This document shows, in pieces, positions 30,116 to 53,399 of a DNA stretch of 64,000 nucleotides. The notes beneath the pieces were generated by a model. That model searched no databases. It had not been told where the DNA came from and saw nothing but the letters and a program-made list of their open reading frames with translations. How positions within the stretch are numbered: the stretch's first letter is position 1; each line of letters begins with the position of its first letter. The DNA is from Nemertoderma westbladi. Its lineage: Eukaryota > Animalia > Xenacoelomorpha. The stretch lies in contig JAUCBJ010000162.1 in NCBI GenBank assembly GCA_032718475.1, positions 25,557 through 89,556 of the forward strand, read 5' to 3'. The translations under genes were made by a program, and so were the position numbers.

Positions 30116-30302
30116 ACTCGTATCTGGATGGTGTGGATGTTGTTACAGACGAGGACAGACGTAAATCAACCGACGGTAAACCAATAGACCCCACAATGTA
30201 CCGCGAAACTGAGTGGATATTCCCGGATTCAACTAAAAACTTCGCCAACCTGCAAATGCAGTACAGTGGCTACTGTGGTTGGAGTCTCGTTCAATATGAC
30301 AG
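30116..30302 (+). CDS. CFAP206: CFAP206 internal exon F
   Basis: ttcctacag|AC TCG...GAC AG|gtaaat. Contains EWIFPDSTKNFANLQMQYSGYCGWS (cf. EWLFPETTANFDKLLIQYRGFCAYT). Phase 1 to 2. Confidence 0.92.
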
Positions 30303-30311
30303 GTAAATAAC

Positions 30312-33300
30312 TCAACTATTGGAGGGTTTGTTTATTGTTTAGATTACTAGTTCCTGGCAACCCAACTATTACAGTGTTTGTTTATTGTTTAGATTACTAG
30401 TTCCTGGCAACCCAACTATTAGAGTGTTTGTTTACTGTTTAGATTACTAGTTCGTTGCAACCCAACCATTAGAGTGTTTGTTTACTGTTTAGATTACTAG
30501 TTCCTGGCAACCCAGCTATTAGAGTGTTTGTTTATTGTTTAGATTACTAGTTCCTGGCAACCCTTCTATCGGAGTGTTTGTTTACTGTTTAGATTACTAT
30601 TGGCAACCCAACTATTAGTGTTTGTTTACTGTTTAGATTACTAGTTCCTGGCAACCCAACTATTAGAGTGTTTGTTTATTGTTTAGATTACTAGTTCCTG
30701 GCAAAACAACTATTACAGTGTTTGTTTATTGTTTAGATTACTAGTTCCTGGCAACCCAACTATTAGAGTGTTTGTTTACTGTTTAGATTACTAGTTCGTT
30801 GCAACCCAACTATTAGAGTGTTTGTTTACTGTATAGATTACTAGTTCCTGGCAACCCAACTATTAGAGTGTTTGTTTATTGTTTAGATTACTAGTTCCTG
30901 GCAACCCTTCTATCGGAGTGTTTGTTTACTGTTTAGATTACTAGTTCTTGGCAACCCAATTATTAGTGTTTGTTTACTGTTTAGATTACTAGTTCCTGGC
31001 AACCCAGCTATTAGAGTGTTTGTTTATTGTTCTAGATTACTAGTTCCTGGCAACCCAACTATTAGAGTGTTTGTTTATTGTTTAGATTACTAGTTCCTGG
31101 CAACCCAACTATTAGAGTGTTTGTTTATTGTTTAGATTACTAGTTCGTTGCAACCCAACTATTAGAGTGTTTGTTTACTGTTTAGATTACTAGTTCCTGG
31201 CAACCCAGCTATTAGAGTGTTTGTTTATTGTTTAGATTACTAGTTCCTGGCAACCCAACTATTAGAGTGTTTGTTTATTGTTTAGATTACTAGTTCCTGG
31301 CAACCCAGATATTAGAGTGTTTTTTTATTGTTTAGATTACTAGTTCCTGGCAACCCAACTATTACAGTGTTTGTTTATTGTTTAGATTACTAGTTCCTGG
31401 CAACCCAGCTATTACAGTGTTTGTTTATTGTTTAGATTACTAGTTCCTGGCAACCCAACTATTACAGTGTTTGTTTATTGTTTAGATTACTAGTTCCTGG
31501 CAACCCAACTATTAGAGTGTTTGTTTATTGTTTAGATTACTAGTTCCTGGCAACCCAGCTATTAGAGTGTTTTTTTATTGTTTAGATTACTAGTTCCTGG
31601 CAACCCAGCTATTAGAGTGTTTGTTTATTGTTTAGATTACTAGTTCCTGGCAACCCAACTATTAGAGTGTTTGTTTATTGTTTAGATTACTAGTTCCTGG
31701 CAACCCAGCTATTAGAGTGTTTGTTTATTGTTTAGATTACTAGTTCCTGGCAAAACAACTATTACAGTGTTTGTTTATTGTTTAGATTACTAGTTCCTGG
31801 CAACCCAACTATTAGAGTGTTTGTTTACTGTTTAGATTACTAGTTCGTTGCAACCCAACTATTAGAGTGTTTGTTTACTGTATAGATTACTATTTCCTGG
31901 CAACCCAACTATTAGAGTGTTTGTTTATTGTTTAGATTACTAGTTCCTGGCAAAACAACTATTACAGTGTTTGTTTATTGTTTAGATTACTAGTTCCTGG
32001 CAACCCAACTATTAGAGTGTTTGTTTACTGTTTAGATTACTAGTTCGTTGCAACCCAACTATTAGAGTGTTTGTTTACTGTATAGATTACTAGTTCCTGG
32101 CAACCCAACTATTAGAGTGTTTGTTTATTGTTTAGATTACTAGTTCCTGGCAACCCTTCTATCGGAGTGTTTGTTTACTGTTTAGATTACTAGTTGTTGG
32201 CAACCCAATTATTAGTGTTTGTTTACTGTTTAGATTACTAGTTCCTGGCAACCCAGCTATTAGAGTGTTTGTTTATTGTTCTAGATTACTAGTTCCTGGC
32301 AACCCAACTATTAGAGTGTTTGTTTATTGTTTAGATTACTAGTTCCTGGCAACCCAACTATTAGAGTGTTTGTTTATTGTTTAGATTACTAGTTCGTTGC
32401 AACCCAACTATTAGAGTGTTTGTTTACTGTTTAGATTACTAGTTCCTGGCAACCCAGCTATTAGAGTGTTTGTTTATTGTTTAGATTACTAGTTCCTGGC
32501 AACCCAACTATTAGAGTGTTTGTTTATTGTTTAGATTACTAGTTCCTGGCAACCCAGCTATTAGAGTGTTTTTTTATTGTTTATATTACTAGTTCCTGGC
32601 AACCCAACTATTAGAGTGTTTGTTTATTGTTTAGATTACTAGTTCCTGGCAAAACTACTATTACAGTGTTTGTTTATTGTTTAGATTACTAGTTCCTGGC
32701 AACCCAACTATTAGAGTGTTTGTTTACTGTTTAGATTACTAGTTCGTTGCAACCCAACTATTAGAGTGTTTGTTTACTGTATAGATTACTAGTTCCTGGC
32801 AACCCAACTATTAGAGTGTTTGTTTATTGTTTAGATTACTAGTTCCTGGCAACCCTTCTATCGGAGTGTTTGTTTACTGTTTAGATTACTAGTTCTTGGC
32901 AACCCAATTATTAGTGTTTGTTTACTGTTTAGATTACTAGTTCCTGGCAACCCAGCTATTAGAGTGTTTGTTTATTGTTTAGATTACTAGTTCCTGGCAA
33001 CCCAACTATTAGAGTGTTTGTTTATTGTTTAGATTACTAGTTCCTGGCAACCCAACTATTAGAGTGTTTGTTTATTGTTTAGATTACTAGTTCGTTGCAA
33101 CCCAACTATTAGAGTGTTTGTTTATTGTTTAGATTACTAGTTCCTGGCAACCCAGCTATTAGAGTGTTTTTTTATTGTTTAGATTACTAGTTCCTGGCAA
33201 CCCAACTATTAGAGTGTTTGTTTATTGTTTAGATTACTAGTTCGTTGCAACCCAACTATTACAGTGTTTGTTTATTGTTTAGATTACTAGTTCCTGGCAA

Positions 33301-36300
33301 CCCAACTATTAGAGTGTTTGTTTTCTGTTTAGATTACTAGTTCCTGGCAACCCAACTATTAGAGTGTTTGTTTTCTGTTTAGATTACTAGTTCCTGGCAA
33401 CCCAACTATTAGAGTGTTTGTTTATTGTTTAGATTACTAGTTCGTTGCAACCCAACTATTAGAGTGTTTGTTTACTGTTTAGATTACTAGTTCCTGGCAA
33501 CCCTTCTATCGGAGTGTTTGTTTACTGTTTAGATTACTAGTTGTTGGCAACCCAATTATTAGTGTTTGTTTACTGTTTAGATTACTAGTTCCTGGCAACC
33601 CAGCTATTAGAGTGTTTGTTTATTGTTCTAGATTACTAGTTCCTGGCAACCCAACTATTAGAGTGTTTGTTTATTGTTTAGATTACTAGTTCCTGGCAAC
33701 CCAACTATTAGAGTGTTTGTTTATTGTTTAGATTACTAGTTCGTTGCAACCCAACTATTAGAGTGTTTGTTTACTGTTTAGATTACTAGTTCCTGGCAAC
33801 CCAGCTATTAGAGTGTTTGTTTATTGTTTAGATTACTAGTTCCTGGCAACCCAACTATTAGAGTGTTTGTTTATTGTTTAGATTACTAGTTCCTGGCAAC
33901 CCAGCTATTAGAGTGTTTTTTTATTGTTTATATTACTAGTTCCTGGCAACCCAACTATTAGAGTGTTTGTTTATTGTTTAGATTACTAGTTCCTGGCAAA
34001 ACAACTATTACAGTGTTTGTTTATTGTTTAGATTACTAGTTCCTGGCAACCCAACTATTAGAGTGTTTGTTTACTGTTTAGATTACTAGTTCGTTGCAAC
34101 CCAACTATTAGAGTGTTTGTTTACTGTATAGATTACTAGTTCCTGGCAACCCAACTATTAGAGTGTTTGTTTATTGTTTAGATTACTAGTTCCTGGCAAC
34201 CCTTCTATCGGAGTGTTTGTTTACTGTTTAGATTACTAGTTCTTGGCAACCCAATTATTAGTGTTTGTTTACTGTTTAGATTACTAGTTCCTGGCAACCC
34301 AGCTATTAGAGTGTTTGTTTATTGTTTAGATTACTAGTTCCTGGCAACCCAACTATTAGAGTGTTTGTTTATTGTTTAGATTACTAGTTCCTGGCAACCC
34401 AACTATTAGAGTGTTTGTTTATTGTTTAGATTACTAGTTCGTTGCAACCCAACTATTAGAGTGTTTGTTTATTGTTTAGATTACTAGTTCCTGGCAACCC
34501 AGCTATTAGAGTGTTTTTTTATTGTTTAGATTACTAGTTCCTGGCAACCCAACTATTAGAGTGTTTGTTTATTGTTTAGATTACTAGTTCGTTGCAACCC
34601 AACTATTACAGTGTTTGTTTATTGTTTAGATTACTAGTTCCTGGCAACCCAACTATTAGAGTGTTTGTTTTCTGTTTAGATTACTAGTTCCTGGCAACCC
34701 AACTATTAGAGTGTTTGTTTTCTGTTTAGATTACTAGTTCCTGGCAACCCAACTATTAGAGTGTTTGTTTATTGTTTAGATTACTAGTTCGTTGCAACCC
34801 AACTATTAGAGTGTTTGTTTACTGTTTAGATTACTAGTTCCTGGCAACCCAGCTATTAGAGTGTTTGTTTATTGTTTAGATTACTAGTTCGTTGCAACCC
34901 AACTATTAGAGTGTTTGTTTTCTGTTTAGATTACTAGTTCGTTGCAACCCAACTATTAGAGTGTTTGTTTATTGTTTAGATTACTAGTTCCTGGCAACCC
35001 AACTATTAGAGTGTTTGTTTATTGTTTAGATTACTAGTTCCTGGCAACCCAACTATTAGAGTGTTTGTTTATTGTTTAGATTACTAGTTCGTTGCAACCC
35101 AACTATTAGAGTGTTTGTTTATTGTTTAGATTACTAGTTCCTGGCAACCCAACTATTAGAGTGTTTGTTTATTGTTTAGATTACTAGTTCGTTGCAACCC
35201 AACTATTAGAGTGTTTGTTTTCTGTTTAGATTACTAGTTCGTTGCAACCCAACTATTAGAGTGTTTGTTTTCTGTTTAGATTACTAGTTCGTTGCAACCC
35301 AACTATTAGAGTGTTTGTTTTCTGTTTAGATTACTAGTTCGTTGCAACCCAACTATTAGAGTGTTTGTTTATTGTTTAGATTACTAGTTCGTTGCAACCC
35401 AACTATTAGAGTGTTTGTTTATTGTATAGATTACTAGTTCCTGGCAACCCAACTATTAGAGTGTTTGTTTTCTGTTTAGATTACTAGTTCGTTGCAACCC
35501 AACTATTAGAGTGTTTGTTTATTGTTTAGATTACTAGTTCCTGGCAACCCAACTATTAGAGTGTTTGTTTATTGTTTAGATTACTAGTTCGTTGCAACCC
35601 AACTATTAGAGTGTTTGTTTACTGTTTAGATTATTAGTTCCTGGCAACCCAGCTATTAGAGTGTTTGTTTTCTGTTTAGATTACTAGTTCCTGGCAACCC
35701 AACTATTAGAGTGTTTGTTTATTGTTTAGATTACTAGTTCCTGGCAACCCAACTATTAGAGTGTTTGTTTACTGTTTAGATTACTAGTTCGTTGCAACCC
35801 AACTATTAGAGTGTTTGTTTATTGTTTAGATTACTAGTTCCTTGCAACCCAACTATTAGAGTGTTTGTTTATTGTTTAGATTACTAGTTCCTGGCAACCT
35901 AACTATTACAGTGTTTGTTTATTGTTTAGATTACTAGTTCCTGGCAACCCAACTATTAGAGTGTTTGTTTACTGTTTAGATTACTAGTTCCTGGCAACCC
36001 AACTATTAGAGTGTTTGTTTATTGTTTAGATTACTAGTTCCTGGCAACCCTTCTATCGGAGTGTTTGTTTATTGTTTAGATTACTAGTTCCTGGTGTTTA
36101 GATTACTAGTTCCTGGCAACCCAACTATTAGAGTGTTTGTTTTCTGTAAAGATTACTAGTTCCTGGCAACCGAACTATTAGAGTGTTTGTTTACTGTTTA
36201 GATTACTAGTTCCTGGCAACCCAACTATTAGCGTGTTTGTTTATTGTTTAGATTACTAGTTCCTGGCAACCCAATTATTACAGTGTTTGTTTATTGTTTG

Positions 36301-36618
36301 GTTTACTACAGTAGTTCCTGGCAACCCAACTATTAGAGTGTTTGTTTACTGTTTAGATTACTAGTTCCTGGCAACCCTTCTATCGGAGTGTTTGTTTATT
36401 GTTTAGATTACTAGTTCCTGGCAACCCAACTATTAGAGTGTTTGTTTTCTGTTTAGATTACTAGTTCCTGGCAACCCAACTATTAGAGTGTTTGTTTATT
36501 GTTTAGATTACTAGTTCCTGGCAACCCAACTATTAGAGTGTTTGTTTATTGTTTAGATTAGTAGTTCCTGGCAACCCAAATATTAGAGTGTTTGTTTATT
36601 GTTTAGATTAGTAGTTCC
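30312..36618 (+). repeat. 50-bp tandem array of the CFAP206 exon-G acceptor junction, left arm (about 125 copies)
   Basis: Unit gtgtttgtttattgtttag|ATTACTAGTTCCTGGCAACCC(aactattaga/ttctatcgga). Begins about 10 nt after the exon-F donor. Confidence 0.97.
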
Positions 36619-37159
36619 TGTTAGCTTATTCAATCCCGCCAACACCCCATAAAGTTATAAGCCGATAAGCAATATTGGGAGCCACGAGATTGGGCAATTA
36701 ACCAACTCGTGCCATCCCAATAAGAGTGGGAAGGAAGCACACAATAGAGGGTCAGGGGCCAAACCCCTAACCCAGGGAGAACAAGTGGAGTGAACGGGAA
36801 TACTCCACGGGGCGCCAACAAGGGTATTAACCAATCAGAGGGGGGGAATGGCATCGATTGAGTAGCAGTAAGGCCACCGTGCAATATAACCAATAACCTA
36901 TTAATCAGTGATTCAGTTACCTCAGTGCAGCAGTGCTAGCGTAGGGTACAGTCAATTAGTTTAGTTAGGGGATCACGGGACTTTAGTTACCGTATCCCGC
37001 CTTGTACACATTATATCTATATCTATATCCTATGCCCTATTATTATTATACACCGAACTTCAGAACTCAGTTACTTTATTTCACCCTTATACACGGCGGG
37101 GACGCGTGGACTAAATTACCACATCGGATAAATCGGGATCCCTCCTGGATCCCGTCACA
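36619..37159 (+). repeat. 5' LTR (541 bp)
   Basis: TGTTAG...TCACA. I see only 2 substitutions versus the 3' LTR (acaAg/acaGg; agttaC/agttaT). TATAA near 36885 and TCAGT initiator-like motifs near 36905-36926. Confidence 0.97.
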
Positions 37160-37239
37160 GTAACTAAATCCGAGCTGCCGCCCCAGTTGAACTCTAAGAA
37201 CTACACTGCTAGCTAGCCGAACTCCACCGACAAGACGAG

Positions 37240-39630
37240 ATGAGTGAATCGGGCGAGACACCGACGCGGACCCCGGACGAAGATCAAACGATCCGCGAGG
37301 CCGCGACCAAGCGATACAGGCCCACGACGCCGGAGCCATCGATAACGGGCGAACCGGAAGTTGAGGATGAGGGGGGCCTGGAACCCGAAGTCGAGCCAAG
37401 AGAGAGAGAGAGCGAGATGGAGGGAGAAGGAGATGAGTCGACACGGAACGGAGAACGGCGCGCCGATGTCGCCGGCCAGCTACCGGCCGGGGGCGACGAG
37501 CGGCCCACCGAAACGGCGACGGTGGGGCCGACGGTGCGACGCCGGATGCAAAGAGACAGCGGAGAGATCGGTACCGATGTCGCCGGCCAGCTACAGGCCG
37601 AGGGCGACGGACGGCCCACCGGAACGGCGACGGTGGAGCCGCCGGTACGACGTCGAACCCGGAGGGACGGAGGAGAGGTCGGCGATGAGGACGTCGGGGT
37701 CTCCGAACGACTTCGACGGGCTTACATCGCGACCCGGAGACTACTAGAGAAGGCCAGAAAAGGGAAAACGGTAGACGAGGTGAGACTGAGAAAGCGACTA
37801 GGTGAGTCGGATAGACACTTTAATTATCTTATACGTTTTGGGCAAAGAGAACTAGCCGAAACGAGAGCACGTGAAATTGCCGAGGAACTGTTTAAACTAT
37901 TGGAATGTGGGAGTATGGAACCTAGCATAGCGTCAGTGTACATAGGGCCATACTTGATCGATGCCCGGGGAGTAAAACCAGTGGGTTGGAGGGGACTCGA
38001 AGGGGGCGAATCCGAGGTTAACACCGAGGATTCGGCCTCGTCGGTCGGAGAAAGCTCCGGGAAGTGGGGGAAAGTTAGTAGGTCAGGAAGGCGGGGGAAC
38101 TCCGTCGTAACCGATAAGTCTGTTACATCTTCCGCGAAAGAAAGAGCGGTGAGAAAAATAGGTGCCGCATACCGTCTCAGCATGGCAGAGCAAGGTCACA
38201 GGGAAATGGGGAAACGGCTAGAGGAGGGGAGAGAGCGGTTAGCGAGGGAAGCGGCATTGATTAGAGAAACCGGAGAGAAGGCCGAAAGGGCTTTGAAAAG
38301 CCTAAGGGAGTGTGATGAGATAGAGGAAAGGGAGTGTAGGGAGCGTGAGGCGAGAGAGGAAAGGGAACGCGAGGAGCGTGAGGCGAGAGAGGAAAGGGAA
38401 CGCAAGGAGCGTGAGGCGGAACGCAAGGAGCGTGAGGCGAGAGAGGAAAGGAAACGCGAGGAACGTGAGGCAAGGGAGGAAAGGGAACGCAAGGAGCGTG
38501 AGACGGAACGCAAGGAGTATGAAGCGAGAAGGGAAAAGGAACGCAAGGAGTATGAAGCGAGAAAGGAAAGGGAACGCAAGGAGCGCGAGGCGAGACGAAG
38601 GGAGAGCGCTAGGAGCATAGTAGAGTCGGCCAGTCGGGACACCCAGGAGTGTGAGAAGAGAATGATAGAGGCTGAAAGAGAGAACAAGAAAATAGAGAGA
38701 CTGCAGAGCGAGTTTGCGGGAAGTGAGATTAGACGGGCGCACGAGTTGCAAGTCGTGCAAGCAACGCCGTCTGAAAGCGGGGCCCGCTCGAGTATTTTTG
38801 AGGACCCGGGGGTCATAGATACATTTATTAATGCCCCACTGACAGGCACCGTACGACAGACCCAAAACTGGTGCGACCGTACGGGCGGGGGGGGTAATAA
38901 TAATAATGGTACAGTAGACGTTGTTAATATTGATAATACCGTATGGGACAACACTAATCAAACCTTTATTACAGGGAATGCTTTACATAGTGGTAGTAAT
39001 TTAAATTTAAATCAGAACGCCCCTAGTATTAATGTAGGAAATAATTCTGATATTAATGTAGCTACGCAAAATAATTCAAATAATCAAAATAATAACCCGA
39101 ATTCGAATCTACAAAATAATTTAAATAACGCAATTACGCAAAATAATTCGAATAATTTAAATAATGACCTATGCCCGAATTTACAAAATAATTCAGATAA
39201 CGTGCAGAATAATATAAATAACTTTGTTCCCAACGAACAAAATAATTCCGTTTCCAATATGGGTGTTATTAATGTAAACACGTCGGGCCTACATAACCAG
39301 GGAGCAGAGGGCCTGGTAGGCCACGTAGTTAGTAGACAGGGAGCAGAGGGCCTGGTAGGCCACGTAGTTGGTAGGGAGGGAGTAGAGGGCCTGGTAGGCC
39401 ACGCAATAGCAGAGGGAGAGGCGGGGGTGAATGGACCCGACCGCAGTAGGGTTGATGTGTCGACTAGAGAGGTATATAATAGCGGGGAGAGAGGTAGCGA
39501 GGTTAGACGTAGCGAGTGGGGGGGGGGGCTACGAGGACCCCACAACAGAGAGTTAGCGGCGAGAGGGGGGGGGGGGGGGGGGCAGGGAGTGTCCCACAGC
39601 CGTCAGCGGATAATGCGAGGGCCGAAATAG
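37240..39630 (+). CDS. BEL/Pao gag N-terminal extension (low-complexity, E/R coiled coil, N-rich)
   Basis: 796-aa ORF starting 80 nt after the LTR. Overlaps the next ORF in the -1 frame across G11 (39518-39528) and G18 (39565-39582) runs. Confidence 0.7.
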   Translation: MSESGETPTRTPDEDQTIREAATKRYRPTTPEPSITGEPEVEDEGGLEPEVEPRERESEMEGEGDESTRNGERRADVAGQLPAGGDERPTETATVGPTVRRRMQRDSGEIGTDVAGQLQAEGDGRPTGTATVEPPVRRRTRRDGGEVGDEDVGVSERLRRAYIATRRLLEKARKGKTVDEVRLRKRLGESDRHFNYLIRFGQRELAETRAREIAEELFKLLECGSMEPSIASVYIGPYLIDARGVKPVGWRGLEGGESEVNTEDSASSVGESSGKWGKVSRSGRRGNSVVTDKSVTSSAKERAVRKIGAAYRLSMAEQGHREMGKRLEEGRERLAREAALIRETGEKAERALKSLRECDEIEERECREREAREEREREEREAREERERKEREAERKEREAREERKREEREAREERERKERETERKEYEARREKERKEYEARKERERKEREARRRESARSIVESASRDTQECEKRMIEAERENKKIERLQSEFAGSEIRRAHELQVVQATPSESGARSSIFEDPGVIDTFINAPLTGTVRQTQNWCDRTGGGGNNNNGTVDVVNIDNTVWDNTNQTFITGNALHSGSNLNLNQNAPSINVGNNSDINVATQNNSNNQNNNPNSNLQNNLNNAITQNNSNNLNNDLCPNLQNNSDNVQNNINNFVPNEQNNSVSNMGVINVNTSGLHNQGAEGLVGHVVSRQGAEGLVGHVVGREGVEGLVGHAIAEGEAGVNGPDRSRVDVSTREVYNSGERGSEVRRSEWGGGLRGPHNRELAARGGGGGGQGVSHSRQRIMRGPK

Positions 39631-42600
39631 GTAAACCGCAACGACCGGCGACGGAAAGTAATAGGGGGATCGCGAGTATCCCCAGCGGCGTGCGACCGAG
39701 CAGAGAGAGACAGGTTGACGTCGCGAGAGGGCGGACGAAGCGTCGAGCCCGATCAGAGGAGGGAAGAAGAACAGTGGGGTTTAACCGGGAGGTCGACGAG
39801 AGATCTCGCGAGCGGGAATATTCCACTGATAGGAGACGAAAGGAAGACAGTAGTAGAAGTATCGCCGCAAACGATAGAAGAGCGAGGACGGACAGCGAGC
39901 CGTCGGTAGTCGAGATGAGAACGGAGAGTCAGTGGGGTCGGACTCCGGGAGATTGCCGTCGCCCCGGAGAGATGCGACCCGGTGAGATGCATTACACGCC
40001 GAGAGAGGGGTACACGATGTACCGGTACGAAGATGAGGACAGAAGAGAGGGGGGTCGAAGAGAAGCTTTCCGACGGAATACACCTATTGATCGAGAGTAC
40101 GGTAGCCGCGGGGAGGATTATTCGAGAAGAATAAACTTCGGTCCCGAGAGACACATGCAGACTGTAGGACATACTGTAGGCCTTACTGCACATACCATAG
40201 GCCATACTGAGAGAGGCTATATAGGCGATAGGATAGCGCGGACGACGGAATTAAACCCGGAAGTCGCGGAATACGTACCGGCGAGTAGGCCAGAAGCTGA
40301 TAGGCCTATACTGGTACCAGCACAGCAGTATGACTACAGCATGCAGGGACATAACATATACCCAGGGGAGGGGGGAATTATTGCGGATAAGTGCATGGGC
40401 CCCAACATATTAACATCAACCCCATTACCAAACATACCGGTGGGGGGGGGACAGGGTGACATTCCCCCATCGCAATATCAACAATATACCCCGATGGTAG
40501 CAAGAACAATGAGACCCTTGGACGAAAACAGATCGTGTGACACAGATATATGGAGGGGGCCGCTACCCCCAATGACATACCCAAGCCAGAGAAAGTCAAG
40601 AAATAGGACAGACGGAACGCACCAGACAGGGGAAACTATACAGCACCCGTCGAATCCATTGGAAGCGCAGGCGATAGGGATGGCCACGTTGATCGATGCT
40701 TTGAAAACGAGGATCGAGTTACCACCCGTGGAACCATTCAAGTTCGACGGGAGTAGGCCGGAAGAATATTTACAATTTCGGCGAATGTATAGTAACGAAA
40801 TACTAACAAAAAACTTGACGCAGGCGGAGTGCCTAAAGTATCTACAAGTGTACACGGGAGGCCCAGCATACGATATCGTGAGGCAATACCAAGGAATAGA
40901 GGGCGGCTTCACGACAGCATGGCGGGCACTGGATAGGGAATACGGGCACCCGGCCAAGATCATCAGGCAGACGCTGAGAGGCATAACATCGGGTGGCCTA
41001 CAGGACAACCCCGTTAGCATTAAGACGTTTGCTAACAAAGTTGAAAAGGCGCTAATCGTGCTGAAGACGCTAGACGCGCCGTACGAGCTCAATGCGTCCA
41101 ACAACATCACCACGATAGCGCAGGCACTACCGAACTGGCTGCGCAACAAGTGGAGAAAAATCGCCTTCTCCACTCGAGATAAGAAGGGTGCGGAACCAGG
41201 TTTAGAAGAAATGTCAAACTTCTTAAATTACGAGGCTGAACTAATAACGGACCCAGTCTATAGTGAAGATAGCCTGGGAAAGGGACCAAAGACGGATCAC
41301 TACAGAGCGAAACCAGAGCACAATACATCAAACGCATTGCCGAGACTCAGGCAATCATTGCCATACGCAGCGACGCAGGGGACTGCAAGTCCACAGGCAA
41401 ACGAAGATAAGACAACATCATGGAACAGACAGGGGAACAATAACAACATGAATAAACATAACCCCAGTACGTCCAGTAGGCCAAATCCAGTCAATAAGAA
41501 TAGTAGGGACTTTGGTACGAATATAACTGCGATACGCAATGCATTGTATAAAGAGGGCTACGACCCAAAGAGCAAATGCCAGTTACACGCAAATGCGCTT
41601 CATAAAACCATGAACTGCAGGTACTGGCAGGCGCTACCGAGGCAAGACCAGATAGATTACGCGTCGAGCAATAAGATATGCTCGCGATGTGTGAAGAGTG
41701 GACACAAGGCCAGGGAGTGCCAAGAGAAGCCTGTCAAGTTTGGCCAAAGGAGAGGCCAAACGATGGCAACGAGCACGGTAGGGGCGAAGAAGAGAGGCAC
41801 GGTGTTACTTGGAGTAGTACCGGTGCGAGTGATCGGGGAAGGCAATCGATCAGTAACAACACTAATGCTGGTTGATAGTGGAGCTGCCTTCACATTAGTC
41901 GAGGAATGGGTAGCCGAAGAAATAGGATTGAGAACAAGGCCAAGCAGAATGGCGGTAACAACCATCTCTAGCAAAGATGAGATCCTAGAGATGAGGACAG
42001 GACGGTGCGCAATTGCAGCAGTGGCACCAGGATGCGACTATGGGGCAACCATCGACCCCATCCAAGTAATAGAGTCAATTAACATCAATGCCAGGCGGCC
42101 AACCAACATCGAGGTCGAGCAATACAAATTCCTGGACAACATTGACTTCTCGATCCCAGACGTGGACGTTAGGAAGGTATCCATCATAGTAGGAATGGAC
42201 TGCCCGACGGCCCACGAAAGAATGCAAACGGTCTTCGGCGAAGACAAGCAGAGCGACCCGGTGGCCATATTAACACCATTCGGGTGGACGCTGAGTGGTC
42301 CAATAAAGAGTAAGATACCATTTAGGATGTCGGAGACATCAGGATGCATGTTCGCGGGAACAATGCAGGAAATGGGTGATGAGGGAGCAGAGGAGCAGCT
42401 TAAAAGACTGCTCAGACAAGACTTTGAGGGACTGAAAGAGACCGGGGTCGGGACCTCGGTAGAAGACAAACAGGCTCTACAAAGCGTGGAGGAATCGATG
42501 ACGTGTGATGAGGGGCGGTATACAATAGGAATGGTATGGAAACTACCGAAGATACCGCTACCCGATAATAGGGGGATGGTACTCACGAGACTTCGTAAGC

Positions 42601-45600
42601 TGAAACAAACACTAAAACGGAGCCCCGAGAAGAACGAGTACATTCACAAAACGATTAAGAAGTACGTCGAGAAGGGATGGGCCGTGGAGTTACCGGTCGA
42701 CGAGCCGAACACGGACAGGACATACTACCTGCCACTCCACGTAGCTTTAGACCCAAAGAAAGGTAAACTTAGGATGGTAGTCGATGCATCGGCAAAGACC
42801 GACGGAAAATGCTTAAACGATTACCTGTTGGAAGGCCCAAATATTTACAATTCGGGCATAGAGGTGTTACTTAGATTTTGAAATGGGAAACACGCCTTCA
42901 CGTGTGACATAGAAGGCATGTTCAACCAGGTCCGTGTAACGGAAGAAGATAGTGACAGTCAACGCTTCTTATGGTATAACGGCGAAGAAGAACCGCCGAT
43001 AATACCAGCGTATAAGATGGTAGTACAAAACATGGGGGCCAAGTCGTCCTCATTTACGACGACTATGGCAGTGAGAGACACGGTAAAGGGCAAGGAAGAT
43101 AGATACAGCAGTAGGGCCGTCGATATGATCCGACGCGGCTTCTACGTAGACGACGGTATGGAGTCTGGAGATACGGTTGAGGAGATACTGGAAACAGGGC
43201 GCGAGGTTCGCGACATCCTGAAAGGATCCGGCTTCAACCTGACCAAATTCCAATCCAGTTCAGAAGAATTTATCAAGGCAATAGAGGACAAGAAACCGGA
43301 ATCGACCATGGACAACCCTACAACAGCCAAAGGACAGGACATGGCGAATAAGAGAACACAATCGCAGCAAAAGGCATTGGGAATCGTGTGGGATAGAGGA
43401 ACAGACGAACTGAAGTATCAGCTGAGCCAAGAGGGCGCAGACACCCATACGAAGAGGGGTTATGTATCGTATATAGCAAGGATATACGATCCCCTAGGCC
43501 TAGCATCCCCATTACTAGTCACGGGGAAACAGATACTCAAGAGAGTATATAAATTGAAGGATGAGTGGGACGTAGAGGTACCAGAGGACATCAAGAAACA
43601 GTGGAGCAAATGGACAGGAGACTTGGAAAGGATGGGAACATACAACATGCCGCGAGTGTATTTTCCGGACGGGAACATGACAAGTCTGGACCTACATATG
43701 TTCTCCGACGCGTCGTTAGAGGCATACGGAGCGGCACTCTATTTAGTACAACGAGAGGGGGCTCACAAGCCCAGACTAGCCTTTAGCAAAGCTAAGTCAA
43801 CGCCGCCAGATTCAGCATCTGTTCCCAAGTTAGAATTGACAGCTGCGAGACTAGGAGTTAGAGCCACAGCCTACCTAGTGGATACAATTCCCAACATAGT
43901 GGAGACACACTACTGGACGGATTCCATGGTAGTGCTTGGTTGGCTACACAACGAAAAGACGAGATACCCAATATTCGTCGCGAATAGAGTGGACGAAATA
44001 AGGGCGAGCACAGAACTGGAAAGGTGGCACTACTGCCCAACAGACGAGAACCCAGCGGACTTGCTGTCGAGGGGCGTGGAACGCCACACTTTCTTAAAGA
44101 AGGAAGCATTGTGGCAACATGGGCCACAATCTCTAAGTGATAGGGAGGCCTGGCCGCCGATGAGGAAGGTGGACCCGGGCTCGGAACCAATATCAGAGGG
44201 AGAAGAGGGAGACTCAGAGGGAGAAGAGATATACTCCCAGATGGTGAGGGAGATTAGGGACGTGCAACCAAAGCAAGAACTACGCGATAACCCGACGGAC
44301 AAACTCCTCAGTTACAGTTCTAGTTGGTACAAGACCAAGAAATTAGTGGCGTACTGGAGAGCTTTCGGGAATTTCCTCGCGGGAGTTAATAAGGAGAAGA
44401 AAACCAGGGAAACCATAGATCTGGAAGGAGCGGCCAAGGCAATAATCCGCTATGAACAACGAAAGAACTACGGCGACGAGGTGGAACGCGTCGGCAACCA
44501 ACAGCACCTCCGACGGGACAGCGAGTTGATTACGCTGTTGCCACAATTCAACGACGATGGGATTCTAGTAATGAATTCTAGGGTGGGATATAACAACAGC
44601 ATAGTCGTGCCACCGAAACCCATCATCATTCCCACAGGATCGCCTATAGTCCACCAGATCATATGGGACTCCCACAAATCGATACTGCATGGGGGCACCA
44701 ACCGAACCCTCACAGAGATAAGGAGGACCTATTGGGTCAAACAACTAAGGAAGAAGATTAAAGCGGTAGTGGGGCAGTGCCAGACCTGCCGACGAGCGAA
44801 GAAGGAACGAGCCGTACAGGAGATGGCGCCACTACCGGCGAGTAGGGTAAGACAGCACGACCCGCCATTTACGCATTGCGGTGTGGACATGTTCGGGCCG
44901 ATAAAGATCAAGGTGATGCGACACACGGAGAAACGCTACGGTATTATCTTCGTATGCAACAATACACGGGCGGTAGGGATAGAACTCGCCCAAGATGCAA
45001 CCGCATCAGCATTCATTAACGCCTTAGAAAGGTTTAGGGACCGCAAAGGTGGGACGATCGCAGTGATATACAGCGACAACGGCACCAACTTTGTGGGCGC
45101 AGAGAGTGAGATGGCAGAGGCCTTGGACATCTTAGAAGGAGAAGAAGTCAGGGCGGCCATGAGAAGACGACAAGTAAAGTGGGAGAGAAGGACGCCGTAT
45201 GCACCACATACACTAGGATGCGTCGAGAGACTGGTGGGCAGTTCAAAGCGTCTAATGACGAAGTTAATGAACACCCACATGGTCACTGAAGACGTCTTAC
45301 GGACAGTACTTGCGAAGTGCGAGGGGATCATTAATAGCAGACCGCTATACCCGGAGAATGATGACCCTGAGTCATTAGACGTGCTGACGCCTAGCCATTT
45401 CCTGATGGAAAGGCCAGCGACCATCGATATGCGGGGTGTAGACCCAGATGACATACACTCCCGCCAAAGTTGGAAAGTCGCTAAAGCAATAAGCGCAGAG
45501 TATTGGAGGAGGTGGGTCGAGGAATACCTACCCACGCTCCATAAGCGAAGCAAGTGGAGGAAGCCGAACAGGGAGTTAAGAGAGGGAGATCTCGTAATCG

Positions 45601-45782
45601 TCACGGATGATACTATCATCAACAACCAGTGGCGGTTGGCGAGAGTCGTAGGCACCTACTCCGACGAGGACGGAAGAGTCCGATCGGTAGAAGTGCGGAT
45701 AGGTGGAAAGATAGGTGCGAAAGACAGAAAAACCTACAGGAGAGCAGTAGGTAAATGCTGTCTTCTAGAAGGGGCACCTTAA
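39516..45782 (+). pseudogene. BEL/Pao gag-pol with one in-frame TGA at 42879-42881
   Basis: DUF1759-like FDGSRPEEYLQF, Cys/His knuckles (CSRCVKSGHKAREC), protease LVDSGA, RT YYLPLH..KLRMVVDAS..DIEGMF..FYVDD, Pao RNase H FSDAS..WTDS..NPADLLSRG, integrase HHCC, GVDMFGP, SDNGTNF, ERLVG, C-terminal YWRRWVEEYL/GDLV. ORFs 39516 and 42918 share a frame; LRF* most simply reflects CGA>TGA. Confidence 0.93.
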
Positions 45783-45890
45783 AATGGAGTTAGAGTGGAG
45801 TTTAGTCGTCCAAGCTTTGGACTGAGGGGGGTGGGATTGAGGGCGAGACGCCCTTCCCACACAAATAAAATAAAAATAAAATAAAAACAA

Positions 45891-46541
45891 TAGTTAGTTA
45901 GTTAGTAGGTACGTAGTACCTAGAGTTAGTTAGTTAGTAGGTACGTAGTGCCTAGAGTTAGTTAGTTAGTAGGTACGTAGTGCCTAGAGTTAGTTAGTTA
46001 GTAGGTACGTAGTACCTAGAGTTAGTTAGTTAGTAGGTACGTAGTGCCTAGAGTTAGAGAGTTAGTAGGTACGTAGTACCTAGAGTTAGTTAGTTAGTAG
46101 GTACGTAGTGCCTAGAGTTAGAGTGTTAGTAGGTACGTAGTGCCTAGAGTTAGAGTGTTAGTAGGTACGTAGTACCTAGAGTTAGAGAGTTAGTAGGTAC
46201 GTAGTGCCTAGAGTTAGAGAGTTAGTAGGTACGTAGTGCCTAGAGTTAGAGAGTTAGTAGGTACGTAGTACCTAGAGTTAGAGTTAGAGGGTACGTAGTA
46301 CCGCTAGTTAGAGTTAGAGTTAGAGGGTACGTAGTACCGCTAGTTAGAGTTAGAGTTAGAGGGTACGTAGTATCGATAGTTAGAGTTAGAGTTAGAGGGT
46401 ACGTAGTACCGCTAGTTAGAGTTAGAGTTAGAGGGTACGTAGTACCGATAGTTAGAGTTAGTAGGTACGTAGTACCTAGTTAGAGTTAGAGTTAGTAGGT
46501 ACGTAGTACCGTTAGTTAGAGTTAGAGGGTACGTAGTACCA
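45891..46541 (+). repeat. Internal hairpin tandem array (20 copies, about 29-36 bp) between pol and ORF3
   Basis: Core (ta)ggtac-gta-gtacc(ta) separated by TTAG/TTAGAG spacers. Confidence 0.9.
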
Positions 46542-47043
46542 TTAGTTAGAGAGAGAGAGTGAGAGGTAAAAGGGGTAAATAGGATATAGATATTAGTTAG
46601 TAGTAAGTAGAGTTAATAGCGAGAGGGGGGCATATGAGTACAGCTGGATAAATCGTGCGGCCCCACGACGCATACTGCTGTACTGCATGGGCCCACAGAG
46701 TAGGCCAGAATATGGATCAGAGAATAGAATAAATCCATAGGCAGTAGTAGGTAGTAGGACAGTAGGATCAAAACAAACAAATAAATAGAATAGGGCTAAA
46801 AATCGAAGAATAGTGGCAACACAAGGAAAGTCGTTCTAGAACATAATAAAAGTAACGGACGGAAATTGTAAATTAGGCTGATTTACTAGCTCCGAAATTA
46901 ATTAGGTTAAATTTAGGCTAAAAGGCGCAACTAAGTAGAAAGTAGGCCATTGTCGAACCATACGAAACATCTAAATACTTCACTCATCTGTATTGCGCCT
47001 TGGTAAGGCACCACCCTGCAGGTGAGCGAGTGTAGCGTTCGGA

Positions 47044-49578
47044 ATGGCGAGTAAGCTGATCAGGAAGAGAAAGGCGGAGTCAGGAGGAAAAGAAATACTG
47101 GTGGATTTCACCGAAAGACACCCGGAGGAGAAGACGAGAGGATACTACGAGAAGTTGGAAAGGGGTCACGCGGCACGAGCGCTGCAGGACCACTTCCGGG
47201 AGATGCACGAGCAGCGGCTGGTCGGGACCTACGGAACACCGTCGCTGGACAACGCGATCTTCCAACACTTCCACTACGTGGTGAAAGGAGACGAGGCGAA
47301 GTTCGGGATTCCGAAGTATCCGAGGGAATCGCCGAGGAAGGACTGGAAAAGATTCATAGAGTCCGTCAACCGAGGAGGATATATGATCCTAGATGACGAG
47401 GGAACCGTGGAGGACGAAGCGGGTTCGAGACGAGGAACGGCAGGGTCGGCCAGGACCATACTCTTGCATTTGGCCGCGCCAAATGGGGACATCTTCTTAT
47501 TCGACCTAGGGACGTATGGGAAGAGGGATGGGCCGAAACTAGACCGATTACCGAAAGCGGTACAAGTCTTAGTAAGGGAGAAGTCGACGACGAAGGTGGG
47601 ATCGGCGATTCGCGAGGACGCGGAGAGGATCATCGGTCCGGACGCCACCAACCTCCTGGATATGCAGAAAGTCTTTATGGCTATGACGGCACCGGATGGA
47701 TTGGGGGTGGTCGAGAACACAGGCCAATGCGGGGCGGTGGCGATGGGCCAATTATTGGGGCTCGTATGCCACAAACCGATGGACTGGGGAAAGTTTAGGG
47801 AAGAATACGGAGCAGAACTGGCGAACTCGCTGAAGTGGGGAGCGAGACCGGGAAAGCAGGAGGTATATCAGTTTCGCAGAGGAGCGATAAAGGTATATCA
47901 GAAGCGATATATCCTGCAGGAGGACTGGATGATGATAAGTTTGCTTAACTTATTCATGACCGTAGTTATCGAAAGGGAACCAGGGGCATTTCTGTTATCG
48001 GGATCACCCCTAAGCTACAGGAGAGCCTTTAAGACGGCCTTTGACGGTCTGGTAGACCACCCGGGGCTGAAGGGCGAGTCGGTGTACTACAACAGCCGAC
48101 ATCTGGTAGACGGGGAGACGGATACACCGTATCAGAGATGGGAGCAGCTAGAGGCGGACAGACGAGAAGCAAAGCGACTGGAAGAAGTCGCTAGACGGGA
48201 GAGGATAGAAGCAGAGGAGAGGGAAGAGGAGGCCAGGGCACAGAGTTACGGCTTCGAGGAACAGGCGGGCCTAGACGAACTTCATTGGACTTCGTCAGGG
48301 AGTTCGGGGGAGTCTCTAGGGCGAGAATTGGGATGGACGGTGGGATCGCCGAAACAGTCGACGTCGGGGTTGCAAACGATGCCCATGCCAGCGGGCGCCG
48401 AGGGCGACCAACCGCCAAGGAAGCTAAGGGAGCTAGAGGGATGGAGAGCTACGGGCGAGAGCCAAGGCGGGAAGGGACATAGTGGATCCATCGGGATACC
48501 GGGGTTGGAAACACTACCAGAAGAGGAAGACGGCGACGACGAGTTCGGAGAGATACCGCCCATCGAGAGGATAGGCCACTCGGACACGGACTGGGTTGGC
48601 GGAAGGGTGGTGACAGCCAGTGGGGCGAGGGCCTTCTGGAACAGATCCGGCAAGCGGACCTGGGTGCACGAGGGGCCGGCGATGGATTTCGCGGGGAGCA
48701 CCATCAGGTTGGGCGAGCAACCGGGAACAGCACCACGGATAGTATTCGGGGAGACGATGCCCGAGAGGGGCGGAGAGATCGACGTAAACAGGGAGAGCAA
48801 TGTAGAGAAGTTCGCCTACCAGCGACTCCATAGACCGCGGAGATCGCTTGGGACGAAAGACGAGGTGGGACGGGAGACATTGGTACTCGGCTGCGACTAC
48901 TGTGGGAGACAGACCCATCAGGAAAGCAGCTGCCTATACCGGTTCCAACGGGGAACCTTTTGTCTCTACTGTAGAGAACCAAGTCACAGGATGGGGGCGT
49001 GTCCACGGTTGCATAACCGATGTCCAAAGTGCCACTTTCGGGGACACTACGGACGCGAGTGCGACTGGATGAGCGACGAGGAGAAGTTCACGAGGTTCGA
49101 GGAGTGGGCCGACGTCGGGGCCATGACGCGCCAGCGCATGAAGGCCCAAGAGTTCAAGTGGGGTTTCTTCCTCATAAACCAGGAGACCCACATGGAAATC
49201 ATAAAGCGAAGGTTACCGTTTACCTATCAAGAGGTAGCAACGGCGGCGTCGTTCGCCGGAGTTATGAACACGCAACGGTACCTGGACAGGTGGACACCAG
49301 AGAACCGGAGGGAGTTTAGGGATTTCTTGGCGGAACACGTACCAAAGGCAATGAAAATGATCCTATGGGACGCCACACGAGGGAGACAACCAGGCCATTC
49401 TGAGGGGCCACCGGCGAAGCGGTATCGGGCATTAATAACACCAGCGCCCAAGGAGCCGACGACCGGGATCAGCAAGGAAGTGGCGGCGAAGGTCCGGAAG
49501 CAGAAAGCGGATGATGCCAGAGGAGCGGTGATAACCAAGAAACGGGCCAGGGAAGAGGACGTGAGGAGGAACAGATAA
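47044..49578 (+). CDS. Retrotransposon extra ORF: putative DEDDy (WRN/RNase D-like) 3'-5' exonuclease plus 3 CCHC zinc knuckles
   Basis: Intact 844 aa. ILDDEG (ExoI-like), LLHLAA..IFLFDL, LPKAVQVLVREKSTTKVGSAIREDAERI (ExoII-like), YQKRYILQED (ExoIII-like). Knuckles CDYCGRQTHQESSC, CLYCREPSHRMGAC, CPKCHFRGHYGREC. The ORF is certain; the exonuclease call rests on motif recognition. Confidence 0.7.
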   Translation: MASKLIRKRKAESGGKEILVDFTERHPEEKTRGYYEKLERGHAARALQDHFREMHEQRLVGTYGTPSLDNAIFQHFHYVVKGDEAKFGIPKYPRESPRKDWKRFIESVNRGGYMILDDEGTVEDEAGSRRGTAGSARTILLHLAAPNGDIFLFDLGTYGKRDGPKLDRLPKAVQVLVREKSTTKVGSAIREDAERIIGPDATNLLDMQKVFMAMTAPDGLGVVENTGQCGAVAMGQLLGLVCHKPMDWGKFREEYGAELANSLKWGARPGKQEVYQFRRGAIKVYQKRYILQEDWMMISLLNLFMTVVIEREPGAFLLSGSPLSYRRAFKTAFDGLVDHPGLKGESVYYNSRHLVDGETDTPYQRWEQLEADRREAKRLEEVARRERIEAEEREEEARAQSYGFEEQAGLDELHWTSSGSSGESLGRELGWTVGSPKQSTSGLQTMPMPAGAEGDQPPRKLRELEGWRATGESQGGKGHSGSIGIPGLETLPEEEDGDDEFGEIPPIERIGHSDTDWVGGRVVTASGARAFWNRSGKRTWVHEGPAMDFAGSTIRLGEQPGTAPRIVFGETMPERGGEIDVNRESNVEKFAYQRLHRPRRSLGTKDEVGRETLVLGCDYCGRQTHQESSCLYRFQRGTFCLYCREPSHRMGACPRLHNRCPKCHFRGHYGRECDWMSDEEKFTRFEEWADVGAMTRQRMKAQEFKWGFFLINQETHMEIIKRRLPFTYQEVATAASFAGVMNTQRYLDRWTPENRREFRDFLAEHVPKAMKMILWDATRGRQPGHSEGPPAKRYRALITPAPKEPTTGISKEVAAKVRKQKADDARGAVITKKRAREEDVRRNR

Positions 49579-50285
49579 GTTCCCAGAGACGAGAGAGTGA
49601 GACTGAGACTGGAAAGTGGTGCGCCTGGAAGGCGCCGCATGGAACGTACGAACTATTAAATACAAATTTATTTAATTAATGCAAATAACCATATAAGTGC
49701 AATTCGTATGTACGTACGTAGTAATTAGCAGTAAATACACGATCGGAGTAAGTACTATAGTCATACAACCTTTCTCAATTAGCTACTGGGACTGGGGGAC
49801 AACTGACTATGGCACTATGGACGAGACAACTGACAATTTCACGCTTCTTGAGTGCGACGGCACGAGAGGGGGGGGAGGTTCGTCAGAAGAGATAAAATAG
49901 TCAAAGTGGAGTTGAGGACCGGAGTAAGAGTGCGAAGTGCGGAGAGAGTGCCGATGCAATTCTAGTGTGGGGGGGGGGGAGAATAAGAGGCTGAGTAAGG
50001 GACGAGGAGGTCCGAACGTGAGAGAGTTAGGGTGAGAGTGAAGGTGAGATAGGGCGAAAATGTTGGGGAAACAAAAGTTGCGTGGGAGGTGAGCGCGATC
50101 GGCCCGACATGAGACGCCAGGCACACAGGGTAGCGTTATCATACCCATAGGGGGCGGCCTGGAAAGCCGACCCCGAGAGAAAAGAATTCCACCCCACACC
50201 CGATACTAGATCGGGATCCAGCGGGATTGTAACGCACTTTTTGGTTGATGCTATCTTCTTACCGGGAAGATAGCATGGGGGGGAG

Positions 50286-50826
50286 TGTTAGCTTATTCAA
50301 TCCCGCCAACACCCCATAAAGTTATAAGCCGATAAGCAATATTGGGAGCCACGAGATTGGGCAATTAACCAACTCGTGCCATCCCAATAAGAGTGGGAAG
50401 GAAGCACACAATAGAGGGTCAGGGGCCAAACCCCTAACCCAGGGAGAACAGGTGGAGTGAACGGGAATACTCCACGGGGCGCCAACAAGGGTATTAACCA
50501 ATCAGAGGGGGGGAATGGCATCGATTGAGTAGCAGTAAGGCCACCGTGCAATATAACCAATAACCTATTAATCAGTGATTCAGTTATCTCAGTGCAGCAG
50601 TGCTAGCGTAGGGTACAGTCAATTAGTTTAGTTAGGGGATCACGGGACTTTAGTTACCGTATCCCGCCTTGTACACATTATATCTATATCTATATCCTAT
50701 GCCCTATTATTATTATACACCGAACTTCAGAACTCAGTTACTTTATTTCACCCTTATACACGGCGGGGACGCGTGGACTAAATTACCACATCGGATAAAT
50801 CGGGATCCCTCCTGGATCCCGTCACA
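50286..50826 (+). repeat. 3' LTR (541 bp)
   Basis: Direct repeat of 36619-37159, preceded by the PPT and followed by the TSD GTTCC. Confidence 0.97.
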
Positions 50827-53312
50827 GTTCCTGGCAACCCTTCTATCGGAGTGTTTGTTTATTGTTTAGATTACTAGTTCCTGGCAACCCTTCTATCGGA
50901 GTGTTTGTTTATTGTTTAGATTACTAGTTCCTGGCAACCCTTCTATCGGAGTGTTTGTTTACTGTATAGATTACTAGTTCGTTGCAACCCAACTATTAGA
51001 GTGTTTGTTTACTGTTTAGATTACTAGTTCCTGGCAACCCTTCTATCGGAGTGTTTGTTTATTGTTTAGATTACTAGTTCCTGGCAACCCTTCTATCGGA
51101 GTGTTTGTTTACTGTATAGATTACTAGTTCTTGGCAACCCAACTATTAGAGTGTTTGTTTATTGTTTAGATTACTAGTTCGTTGCAACCCAACTATTAGA
51201 GTGTTTGTTTATTGTTTAGATTACTAGTTCCTGGCAACCCTTCTATCGGAGTGTTTGTTTACTGTTTAGATTACTAGTTCCTGGCAACCCTTCTATCGGA
51301 GTGTTTGTTTATTGTTTAGATTACTAGTTCCTGGCAACCCTTCTATCGGAGTGTTTGTTTACTGTATAGATTACTAGTTCGTTGCAACCCAACTATTAGA
51401 GTGTTTGTTTATTGTTTAGATTACTAGTTCCTGGCAACCCTTCTATCGGAGTGTTTGTTTACTGTTTAGATTACTAGTTCCTGGCAACCCTTCTATCGGA
51501 GTGTTTGTTTATTGTTTAGATTACTAGTTCCTGGCAACCCTTCTATCGGAGTGTTTGTTTACTGTATAGATTACTAGTTCTTGGCAACCCAACTATTAGA
51601 GTGTTTGTTTACTGTTTAGATTACTAGTTCCTGGCAACCCAACTATTACAGTGTTTGTTTATTGTTTAGATTACTAGTTCTTGGCAACCCAACTATTAGA
51701 GTGTTTGTTTACTGTTTAGATTACTAGTTCCTGGCAACCCAACTATTACAGTGTTTGTTTATTGTTTAGATTACTAGTTCCTGGCAACCCAACTATTAGA
51801 GTGTTTGTTTTCTGTATAGATTACTAGTTCTTGGCAACCCAACTATTAGAGTGTTTGTTTTCTGTATAGATTACTAGTTCCTGGCAACCCAACTATTAGA
51901 GTGTTTGTTTACTGTTTAGATTACTAGTTCCTGGCAACCCTTCTATCGGAGTGTTTGTTTATTGTTTAGATTACTAGTTCCTGGCAACCCTTCTATCGGA
52001 GTGTTTGTTTACTGTATAGATTACTAGTTCGTTGCAACCCAACTATTAGAGTGTTTGTTTATTGTTTAGATTACTAGTTCCTGGCAACCCTTCTATCGGA
52101 GTGTTTGTTTACTGTTTAGATTACTAGTTCCTGGCAACCCTTCTATCGGAGTGTTTGTTTATTGTTTAGATTACTAGTTCCTGGCAACCCTTCTATCGGA
52201 GTGTTTGTTTACTGTATAGATTACTAGTTCTTGGCAACCCAACTATTAGAGTGTTTGTTTACTGTTTAGATTACTAGTTCCTGGCAACCCAACTATTACA
52301 GTGTTTGTTTATTGTTTAGATTACTAGTTCTTGGCAACCCAACTATTAGAGTGTTTGTTTATTGTTTAGATTACTAGTTCCTGGCAACCCAACTATTATA
52401 GTGTTTGTTTACTGTTTAGATTACTAGTTCGTTGCAACCCAACTATTAGAGTGTTTTTTTATTGTTTAGATTACTAGTTCTTGGCAACCCAACTATTAGA
52501 GTGTTTGTTTTCTGTTTAGATTACTAGTTCTTGGCAACCCAACTATTAGAGTGTTTGTTTTCTGTTTAGATTACTAGTTCCTGGCAACCCAACTAATAGA
52601 GTGTTTGTTTATTGTTTAGATTACTAGTTCCTGGCAACCCTTCTATCGGAGTGTTTGTTTACTGTTTAGATTACTGGTTCCTGGCAACCCTTCTATCGGA
52701 GTGTTTGTTTATTGTTTAGATTACTAGTTCCTGGCAACCCTTCTATCGGAGTGTTTGTTTACTGTATAGATTACTAGTTCTTGGCAACCCAACTATTAGA
52801 GTGTTTGTTTATTGTTTAGATTACTAGTTCCTGGCAACCCAACTAATAGAGTGTTTGTTTATTGTTTAGATTACTAGTTCCTGGCAACCCTTCTATCGGA
52901 GTGTTTGTTTACTGTTTAGATTACTGGTTCCTGGCAACCCTTCTATCGGAGTGTTTGTTTATTGTTTAGATTACTAGTTCCTGGCAACCCTTCTATCGGA
53001 GTGTTTGTTTACTGTATAGATTACTAGTTCTTGGCAACCCAACTATTAGAGTGTTTGTTTATTGTTTAGATTACTAGTTCCTGGCAACCCTTCTATCGGA
53101 GTGTTTGTTTATTGTTTAGATTACTAGTTCCTGGCAACCCAACTATTAGAGTGTTTGTTTATTGTATAGATTACTAGTTCCTGGCAACCAAACTATTAGA
53201 GTGTTTGTTTACTCTTTAGATTACTAGTTCCTGGCAACCCAACTATTAGAGTGTTTGTTTATTGTTTAGATTACTAGTTCCTGGCAACCCTTCTATCGGA
53301 GTGTTTGTTTAC
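50827..53312 (+). repeat. 50-bp acceptor-junction array, right arm (about 50 copies), ending in the real exon
   Basis: Same unit as 30312-36618. The last copy runs into unique coding sequence at about 53313. Confidence 0.97.
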
Positions 53313-53399
53313 CGCTCACGGTATTACTCATTCAGTTCAAAGGAAGCAGCTGGGGAATTTTGTAAAGACCCTGAAGGATTTATTGCGATGATAGGAGAG
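53270..53399 (+). CDS. CFAP206: CFAP206 internal exon G (hidden between two arrays)
   Basis: tgtttag|A TTA CTA GTT CCT GGC AAC CCT TCT ATC GGA...GGA GAG|gttag. Encodes LLVPGNPSIGVFVYRSRYYSFSSKEAAGEFCKDPEGFIAMIGE (cf. LLLPGNPAIGILKYKEKYYTFNSKDAAYSFAENPE). Phase 2 matches exon F. Confidence 0.92.

Follow-up and report, generated by a model that had tools for sequence, protein, structure and literature searches.

Tandem repeats whose unit spans an intron/exon boundary, so that a splice site is copied along with the repeat, are known from a few genes. In lancelets, such 'mirage' minisatellites were found in Adh3, the globin genes BflGb6 and BflGb9, troponin C and PGBD5, and normal splicing or normal mRNA was reported for them (PMC3087553, PMC3902484). 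In human CBS, the c.844ins68 allele carries a duplicated intron 7/exon 8 junction of which the distal copy is favoured (PMC2630376). In human F7, a 37-bp variable number tandem repeat in intervening sequence 7 (IVS7) begins with a monomer that spans the exon/intron junction, giving 5-9 identical sites; the exon-adjacent donor is used exclusively, and the pseudo-sites work once the true one is lost (PMC1557585). This study concerns an array of this kind in the intron between exons F and G of the cilium-related gene CFAP206 (the F-G intron, 30303..53269). The gene lies in a 64,000-nucleotide (nt) stretch of DNA from Nemertoderma westbladi (contig JAUCBJ010000162.1, positions 25,557 to 89,556 of the forward strand), referred to as the window, in which all positions below are counted.

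The F-G intron is probably a giant mirage-type minisatellite, made by amplification of the intron end together with the start of exon G, into which a BEL/Pao retrotransposon was later inserted, and the last copy is likely picked by exon definition. As in lancelet mirages, the tandem units span the intron/exon boundary and many of them have intact splice signals. Lancelet mirages hit both 5' and 3' boundaries, as do the arrays in the window, and BflGb6 carries an acceptor array like the one in the F-G intron, with 3-6 copies compared to ~175 here, i.e., an array about 30 times larger. Unlike the lancelet mirages in their accessible descriptions, the CFAP206 intron has apparently lost its body, has a retrotransposon inside, and is followed by an exon that sits between an acceptor array and a donor array. 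The described host range of mirages is lancelets and the CFAP206 host is not a lancelet, which is a difference in range and not in structure. CBS 844ins68 resembles the F-G array in that a junction is duplicated and the upstream exon piece leaves with the intron; it differs in having two copies only, which are distinguished by a linked point change (PMC2630376). The F7 IVS7 repeat is a direct analogue of the donor arrays in the window. Junction-spanning units are not described in the accessible text on earthworm intron repeats (PMC12783039), and a literature search, with most subscription journals outside its coverage, gave no report of acceptor arrays this large. The repeat type is known; its scale and anatomy are what is surprising.

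Anatomy of the F-G intron

Joining seven CFAP206 exons on the forward strand (exon A, 2738-2946, to exon G, 53270-53399) gives an open frame of 388 residues, and exons C-G encode consecutive parts of the Pfam FAP206 profile. Exon F (30116..30302; 187 nt, ending in phase 2) corresponds to profile positions 158-209, and exon G (53270..53399; 130 nt, aligned to 120 homologues) to positions 211-252. The intron between them runs from the GT at 30303 to the AG at 53268-53269 (22,967 nt) and is made up of a 6-nt donor, a 34-nt truncated unit, two arrays of a 50-nt unit and one long terminal repeat (LTR) retrotransposon. The arrays, including the first segment, account for 8,759 nt (38%) and the LTR element for 14,208 nt (62%), so most of the intron length stems from one retrotransposon. 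Each 50-nt unit consists of exon G +1..+43 followed by intron -7..-1; the non-transposon part of the intron is, all but 13 nt, derived from exon G, of which the first 43 nt recur in the array and the remaining 87 nt are unique and purine-richer.

All parts of the intron read on the forward strand. The 5' splice site (30303..30308), whose GT..AG joint is present in a spliced-type contig discussed below, contains the sole 5' intron bases without repeat origin. It is followed by the truncated, diverged first unit (30309..30342), which starts near exon G +17, matches the unit at 31 of 34 positions and ends in the first decoy AG. The left array (30343..36618) contains 124 AG/ATTA decoys and higher-order blocks, and the right array (50827..53269) contains 48 decoys and the true acceptor, which gives 173 AG/ATTA sites with the true one included (124 before the LTR element and 49 after it). 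A preliminary description, made from the letters of the window only, had proposed an intron nearly without unique sequence, composed of array and LTR element, with about 175 upstream acceptor copies and a first acceptor 40 nt in (30342). This anatomy was confirmed: 175 unit starts are found with a fuzzy anchor, 172 of the 174 upstream starts are decoy AG/ATTA sites, and the first AG/ATTA lies 40 nt past the donor with its first exon-like base at 30343. The roughly 10 non-repeat bases that it placed after the donor come down to 6, since 31 of the next 34 match the unit.

Tandem Repeats Finder reports a period of 50 with 126.0 and 49.7 copies. The units have a mean identity of 95.6% to the commonest form and fall into 49 sequence classes, with repeated higher-order blocks. 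Exon-type units are commoner to the right of the insertion (22/48) than to the left (8/126; Fisher p 9e-9, for units that are not independent of each other). With higher-order blocks, side-specific variants and a diverged 5' edge unit, the turnover of the array looks concerted. Exon G +34..+43 and intron -17..-8 differ at one of 10 bases, in agreement with the earlier remark that the pyrimidine tract of each copy matches a stretch of exon G. No consensus branch point is found in the unit at the usual distance; the only yTnAy match is at -9.

By its sequence, the insert (36619..50826, on the host strand) is a BEL/Pao element: it has the domains of this group (DUF1759, aspartyl protease, Peptidase_A17, integrase and DUF5641), paired LTRs and a 5-nt target-site duplication. 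The 5' LTR (36619..37159) and the 3' LTR (50286..50826), both 541 nt and in forward orientation, differ at only 2 of 541 sites, which argues for a recent insertion. The target-site duplication sits within one 50-nt unit, and the element is therefore younger than the array. Its pol is broken by an in-frame stop (42879-42881). Compared to typical BEL/Pao elements it is unusually long (14.2 kb) and has two extra long open reading frames (ORFs) without a Pfam match, at 37213-39630 and 47026-49578. The later one is preceded by an AG/GT at 47022 and has CCHC-like motifs, as well as a stretch that, by eye, we take to be exonuclease-like. An Atlas look-up of the third ORF of the element gave no match. 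Lying in the sense orientation, the element brings 8 AATAAA motifs and 5 donor-like sites, through which the host transcript could be cut short or mis-spliced.

Choice among 173 acceptors

Splicing at any of the 172 decoys leads to a stop within 52 codons, in 154 of them after 19 residues ending in DY, and only the acceptor at 53270 keeps the frame open into the conserved FAP206 domain. The preliminary description had predicted this for a standard upstream copy, and it had assigned the choice of the distal acceptor to exon definition and/or nonsense-mediated decay (NMD). Exon definition is the likely selector. The local sequence does not discriminate: 21 of the 172 decoys agree with the true site at every base from at least 20 nt upstream to 42 nt downstream, and 5 still do so when the upstream part is extended to at least 50 nt. 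As these 5 decoys match over at least 92 nt, the deciding information must lie beyond +43. Only the true acceptor is followed by the 87 purine-richer bases (57% purines and 5 GAR triplets, compared to 37% and 1 GAR in the repeated 43 nt) and by the donor at 53400. By a simple donor pattern, 4 of the 173 acceptors are within 300 nt of a donor-like site, namely the true one and the three nearest decoys. Exon definition likely picks the last copy since no other copy leads into the remainder of exon G with a donor nearby. Reed and Maniatis reportedly found in 1986 that flanking exon sequence decides between duplicated splice sites.

In this scheme, U2AF would be recruited to the nearest upstream AG by U1 bound to the donor of exon G and by enhancers within the 87 unique nt, decoys without a donor could not be defined as exons, and residual mis-splicing would be removed by NMD, given the early stops at all 172 decoys. 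The array itself would probably be near-neutral. On the donor side, as for F7 IVS7, a rule of 'first made, first used' suffices, whereas the true F-G acceptor is made last (comparison with the accessible part of PMC1557585). Because the right site is made last, scanning in the 5'-to-3' direction cannot explain its choice. Masking of the decoys by RNA structure was considered separately and rejected: the pyrimidine tract is more open than that of the true site in 144 of 172 decoys, and the AG in 37 of 172.

Contigs of a spliced type come from two runs, X4 and X5, which are not recorded as RNA; their RNA-like status is inferred from exon-only cover, and X4 is another sample. The contigs cover exactly exon F, with no flanking unique intron sequence, and continue for 27 letters. 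The X4 contig (1,422 nt) contains the end of exon E (26101..26332, forward strand; FAP206 positions 80-155), exon F and, beyond the GT..AG joint, 21 letters that match the start of exon G. It argues against skipping of exon G, an outcome that the preliminary description had named as contrary to its reading. The joint was placed on the first copy, the only copy within the stretch compared, and the last 6 letters of the contig did not align to it. From this we infer that letter +22 differs from that of the first copy, in which case 29 of the 173 acceptors would fit the contig, the true one among them, and the first copy and the three nearest decoys would be excluded. The stop of both contigs at +27 may reflect array-type RNA that makes the read graph branch, or else a variant at +28.

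Several points weigh against selection of the last copy by exon definition. The three nearest decoys, which would yield exons of 180, 230 and 280 nt, pass exon definition as well, and a nearest-site rule is needed in addition. Decoys that lie 40, 90 and 140 nt past the upstream donor would be well placed for intron definition, and they are transcribed first. Early experiments with duplicated globin splice sites favoured the proximal copy, with one study to the contrary, as related in the accessible part of PMC1557585. The X4 and X5 contigs stop 27 nt into exon G, where 28 look-alike decoys fit as well as the last copy; contigs drop rare forms and so carry no mis-splicing rate, and X4, as another sample, may be without the LTR element or have another number of copies.

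The same contigs bear on a second explanation, in which the choice is leaky: many decoys would be used at a real rate, their products would be destroyed by NMD, and the array would lower or tune CFAP206 output. This is possible, if rather unlikely. The stops within 52 codons at every decoy, the earlier transcription of the decoys, several of which are identical to the true site, and the break of both RNA-like contigs 27 nt into exon G, read as a branch in the read graph, are in line with it. However, a random pick among 173 acceptors would leave, by arithmetic, less than 1% productive transcripts of a conserved ciliary gene. A decoy-type contig is absent from X4 (where one contig matches, and contigs drop rare forms), and lancelet mirages gave no aberrant products in reverse transcription PCR (RT-PCR) in the accessible part of PMC3087553. 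Exon definition of the last copy is retained as the preferred reading.

Origin, removal and reality of the array

Slippage or unequal exchange between the 10-nt stretches at intron -17..-8 and exon +34..+43, identical at all but one base, may have made the 50-nt unit, and unequal crossing-over would then have multiplied it. Deletion or replacement would have removed the old intron body to within 6 nt of the donor, since plain tandem duplication would leave this body between the donor and the first copy. As a consequence, the branch point and the pyrimidine tract would now lie in repeat sequence, and the LTR element entered one unit after the array had formed. Human CBS 844ins68, for comparison, keeps its long unique intron. 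Against the proposed start of the series, the 10-nt match could be the product of the duplication and not its seed.

The preliminary description had instead envisaged a very short ancestral intron that was inflated several hundred-fold. This part gained no support, as the first 40-nt segment is itself a repeat relic (31/34) and the intron body is missing, so that the ancestral length can no longer be read. A related version, in which an ancestral intron of ~40 nt was inflated without loss and its middle became unit-like through later conversion by the array, is judged unlikely. The first segment does place an acceptor 40 nt from a donor, and it is more diverged from the unit (31/34) than the mean unit is (95.6%), as this version would have it; it aligns, however, to exon G from +17 onward and is hence exon-derived. 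The array-free introns of CFAP206 are moreover 678-14,204 nt in length, and the other array-bearing introns retain unique sequence, with 136 nt of it past the array in the intron of a myotubularin gene in the window. In the edge segment, the codon of an invariant glycine (115/115) is preserved that is lost in the standard unit. The standard unit differs from exon G by two synonymous changes and one conservative change, and it may record an older state of the exon at these three sites, which is suggestive only. The idea that the array had converted the F-V codons of the exon was also considered and was rejected as unremarkable, with 61 of the 388 residues equally rare and 12 adjacent rare pairs.

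It is quite improbable that the intron is new and was born by tandem duplication of exon sequence, i.e., by intron gain of the Rogers type. The derivation of all but 13 nt of the non-transposon intron from exon G would suit such a birth, and so, in an indirect and weak manner, would the gene models of the 120 homologues, which have breakpoints near reference residues 385, 418-420 and 441 and none at 431, the position of the F-G intron. Several other CFAP206 introns are, however, also without matching breakpoints, which makes the odd position uninformative. The AG/GT proto-splice site expected for a Rogers-type duplication is not reproduced by the unit: of its last 7 nt, nothing but the AG agrees with the end of exon F, and the donor hexamer is absent from it. 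As to the F-G intron of a sister taxon, runs X6 and X7 of two other organisms gave no match, and a metagenome scan with exon F gave no relative among 276 pattern matches.

Piecewise excision of the intron via internal donors, by recursive or nested splicing, has little probability. The 5 donor-like sites of the sense LTR element, with the AG/GT at 47022 as one of them, could serve such a process. The unit junction is AG/AT, with neither AG/GT nor a consensus donor in the unit, so that decoy splicing regenerates no donor, and a stepwise ratchet through the array is therefore unlikely; the 8.7 kb of arrays contain one weak donor-like match.

Lastly, three DNA-like runs from two samples (X1, X2 and X3) contain contigs running from exon F through the donor and the 40 nt to the first acceptor (30060-30351/30353, with 0-2 differences), and all three contain deep short contigs of the unit. 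Among the matches listed for X3, three unit contigs at one offset together reach at least ~137x the unique flank depth (1846+2379+176 vs 32.2), and among those listed for X1 the unit contigs reach at least ~45x, where the sums rest on 8 of 32 and 8 of 17 records, respectively, and contig depth is no copy number. With the edge bridged and the unit contigs this deep, neither the array edge nor a high copy number is an artefact of the assembly; the exact number of copies (~175) is an assembly figure known from the window itself. That assembly created the array, or the greater part of its length, as the long identical higher-order blocks and the absence of a contig record spanning the array might suggest, is very improbable in view of the bridged edge in both samples, the unit depth in X3, the 49 sequence classes and an LTR insertion with its target-site duplication.

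Other arrays, neighbouring genes and significance

Three further arrays in the window begin at splice junctions, giving four in all. A 42-nt donor array (53391..60658, forward strand) opens the intron after exon G; it has ~174 units and 287 copies of the true donor 9-mer, the true one included. Exon G is thus flanked by arrays on both sides and forms the innermost pair among hundreds of splice sites. This 42-nt array also holds many other donor-like sites. The myotubularin intron already mentioned (8125-12139, forward strand) contains a 38-nt donor array of ~108 units with 100 motif copies. A 63-nt array (19003-21240; ~35 units, 27 motif copies) repeats the end of CFAP206 exon D together with its donor. 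At 16386-16500, a 36-nt unit occurs three times with a strong donor motif directly after a possible ATG, and it could represent a small repeat at the junction of an exon not yet recognised.

A bolder proposal has a low probability. The lineage would have a mutational process aimed at splice junctions (e.g., breaks at spliceosome-associated R-loops with rolling-circle repair) that can replace whole introns by copies of their boundaries, combined with strict nearest-pair splicing across the exon. Exon G would then be recognised as the innermost pair among 173 acceptors and no fewer than 287 identical donors, and sequence that was once coding would supply the branch point and the pyrimidine tract.

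The closest homologues of the host protein are animal CFAP206 proteins (~65% identity), with 64% identity (247/387) to that of Branchiostoma. The host protein is on a long branch and does not group with Branchiostoma; a quick tree of CFAP206 (55 of 121 rows) gave no supported group for it. By its protein sequence, the host is an animal other than a lancelet. Of the seven CFAP206 boundaries, D/E and perhaps B/C match breakpoints in the gene models of homologues, and intron positions may have been reshaped in the host lineage.

The myotubularin gene (6967-12883, two exons, forward strand) is nested in the CFAP206 C-D intron on the same strand, and an intronless diacylglycerol acyltransferase (DAGAT) gene (16640-17692, reverse strand) lies antisense within the same intron. 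The D-E intron contains an intronless frame of 574 codons (21912-23636, reverse strand) that weakly matches a zinc finger and includes a 36-nt coding repeat. A short dispersed high-copy repeat, with deep cover in the RNA-like runs as well, lies at 29900-30005, shortly before exon F. Directly 3' of the exon G donor array, a non-LTR retrotransposon with endonuclease and reverse transcriptase (60740-63904, forward strand) has a frame broken near 63319.

In the F-G intron, the right acceptor is made after 172 rivals, five of which are identical to it over at least 92 nt. The locus is a natural test, in a non-model animal, of exon definition against intron definition and against co-transcriptional first-come choice, and it presents an intron that works with its original body apparently lost. 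Should splice junctions seed arrays of this sort genome-wide, this would be a route to intron gigantism besides transposon load.

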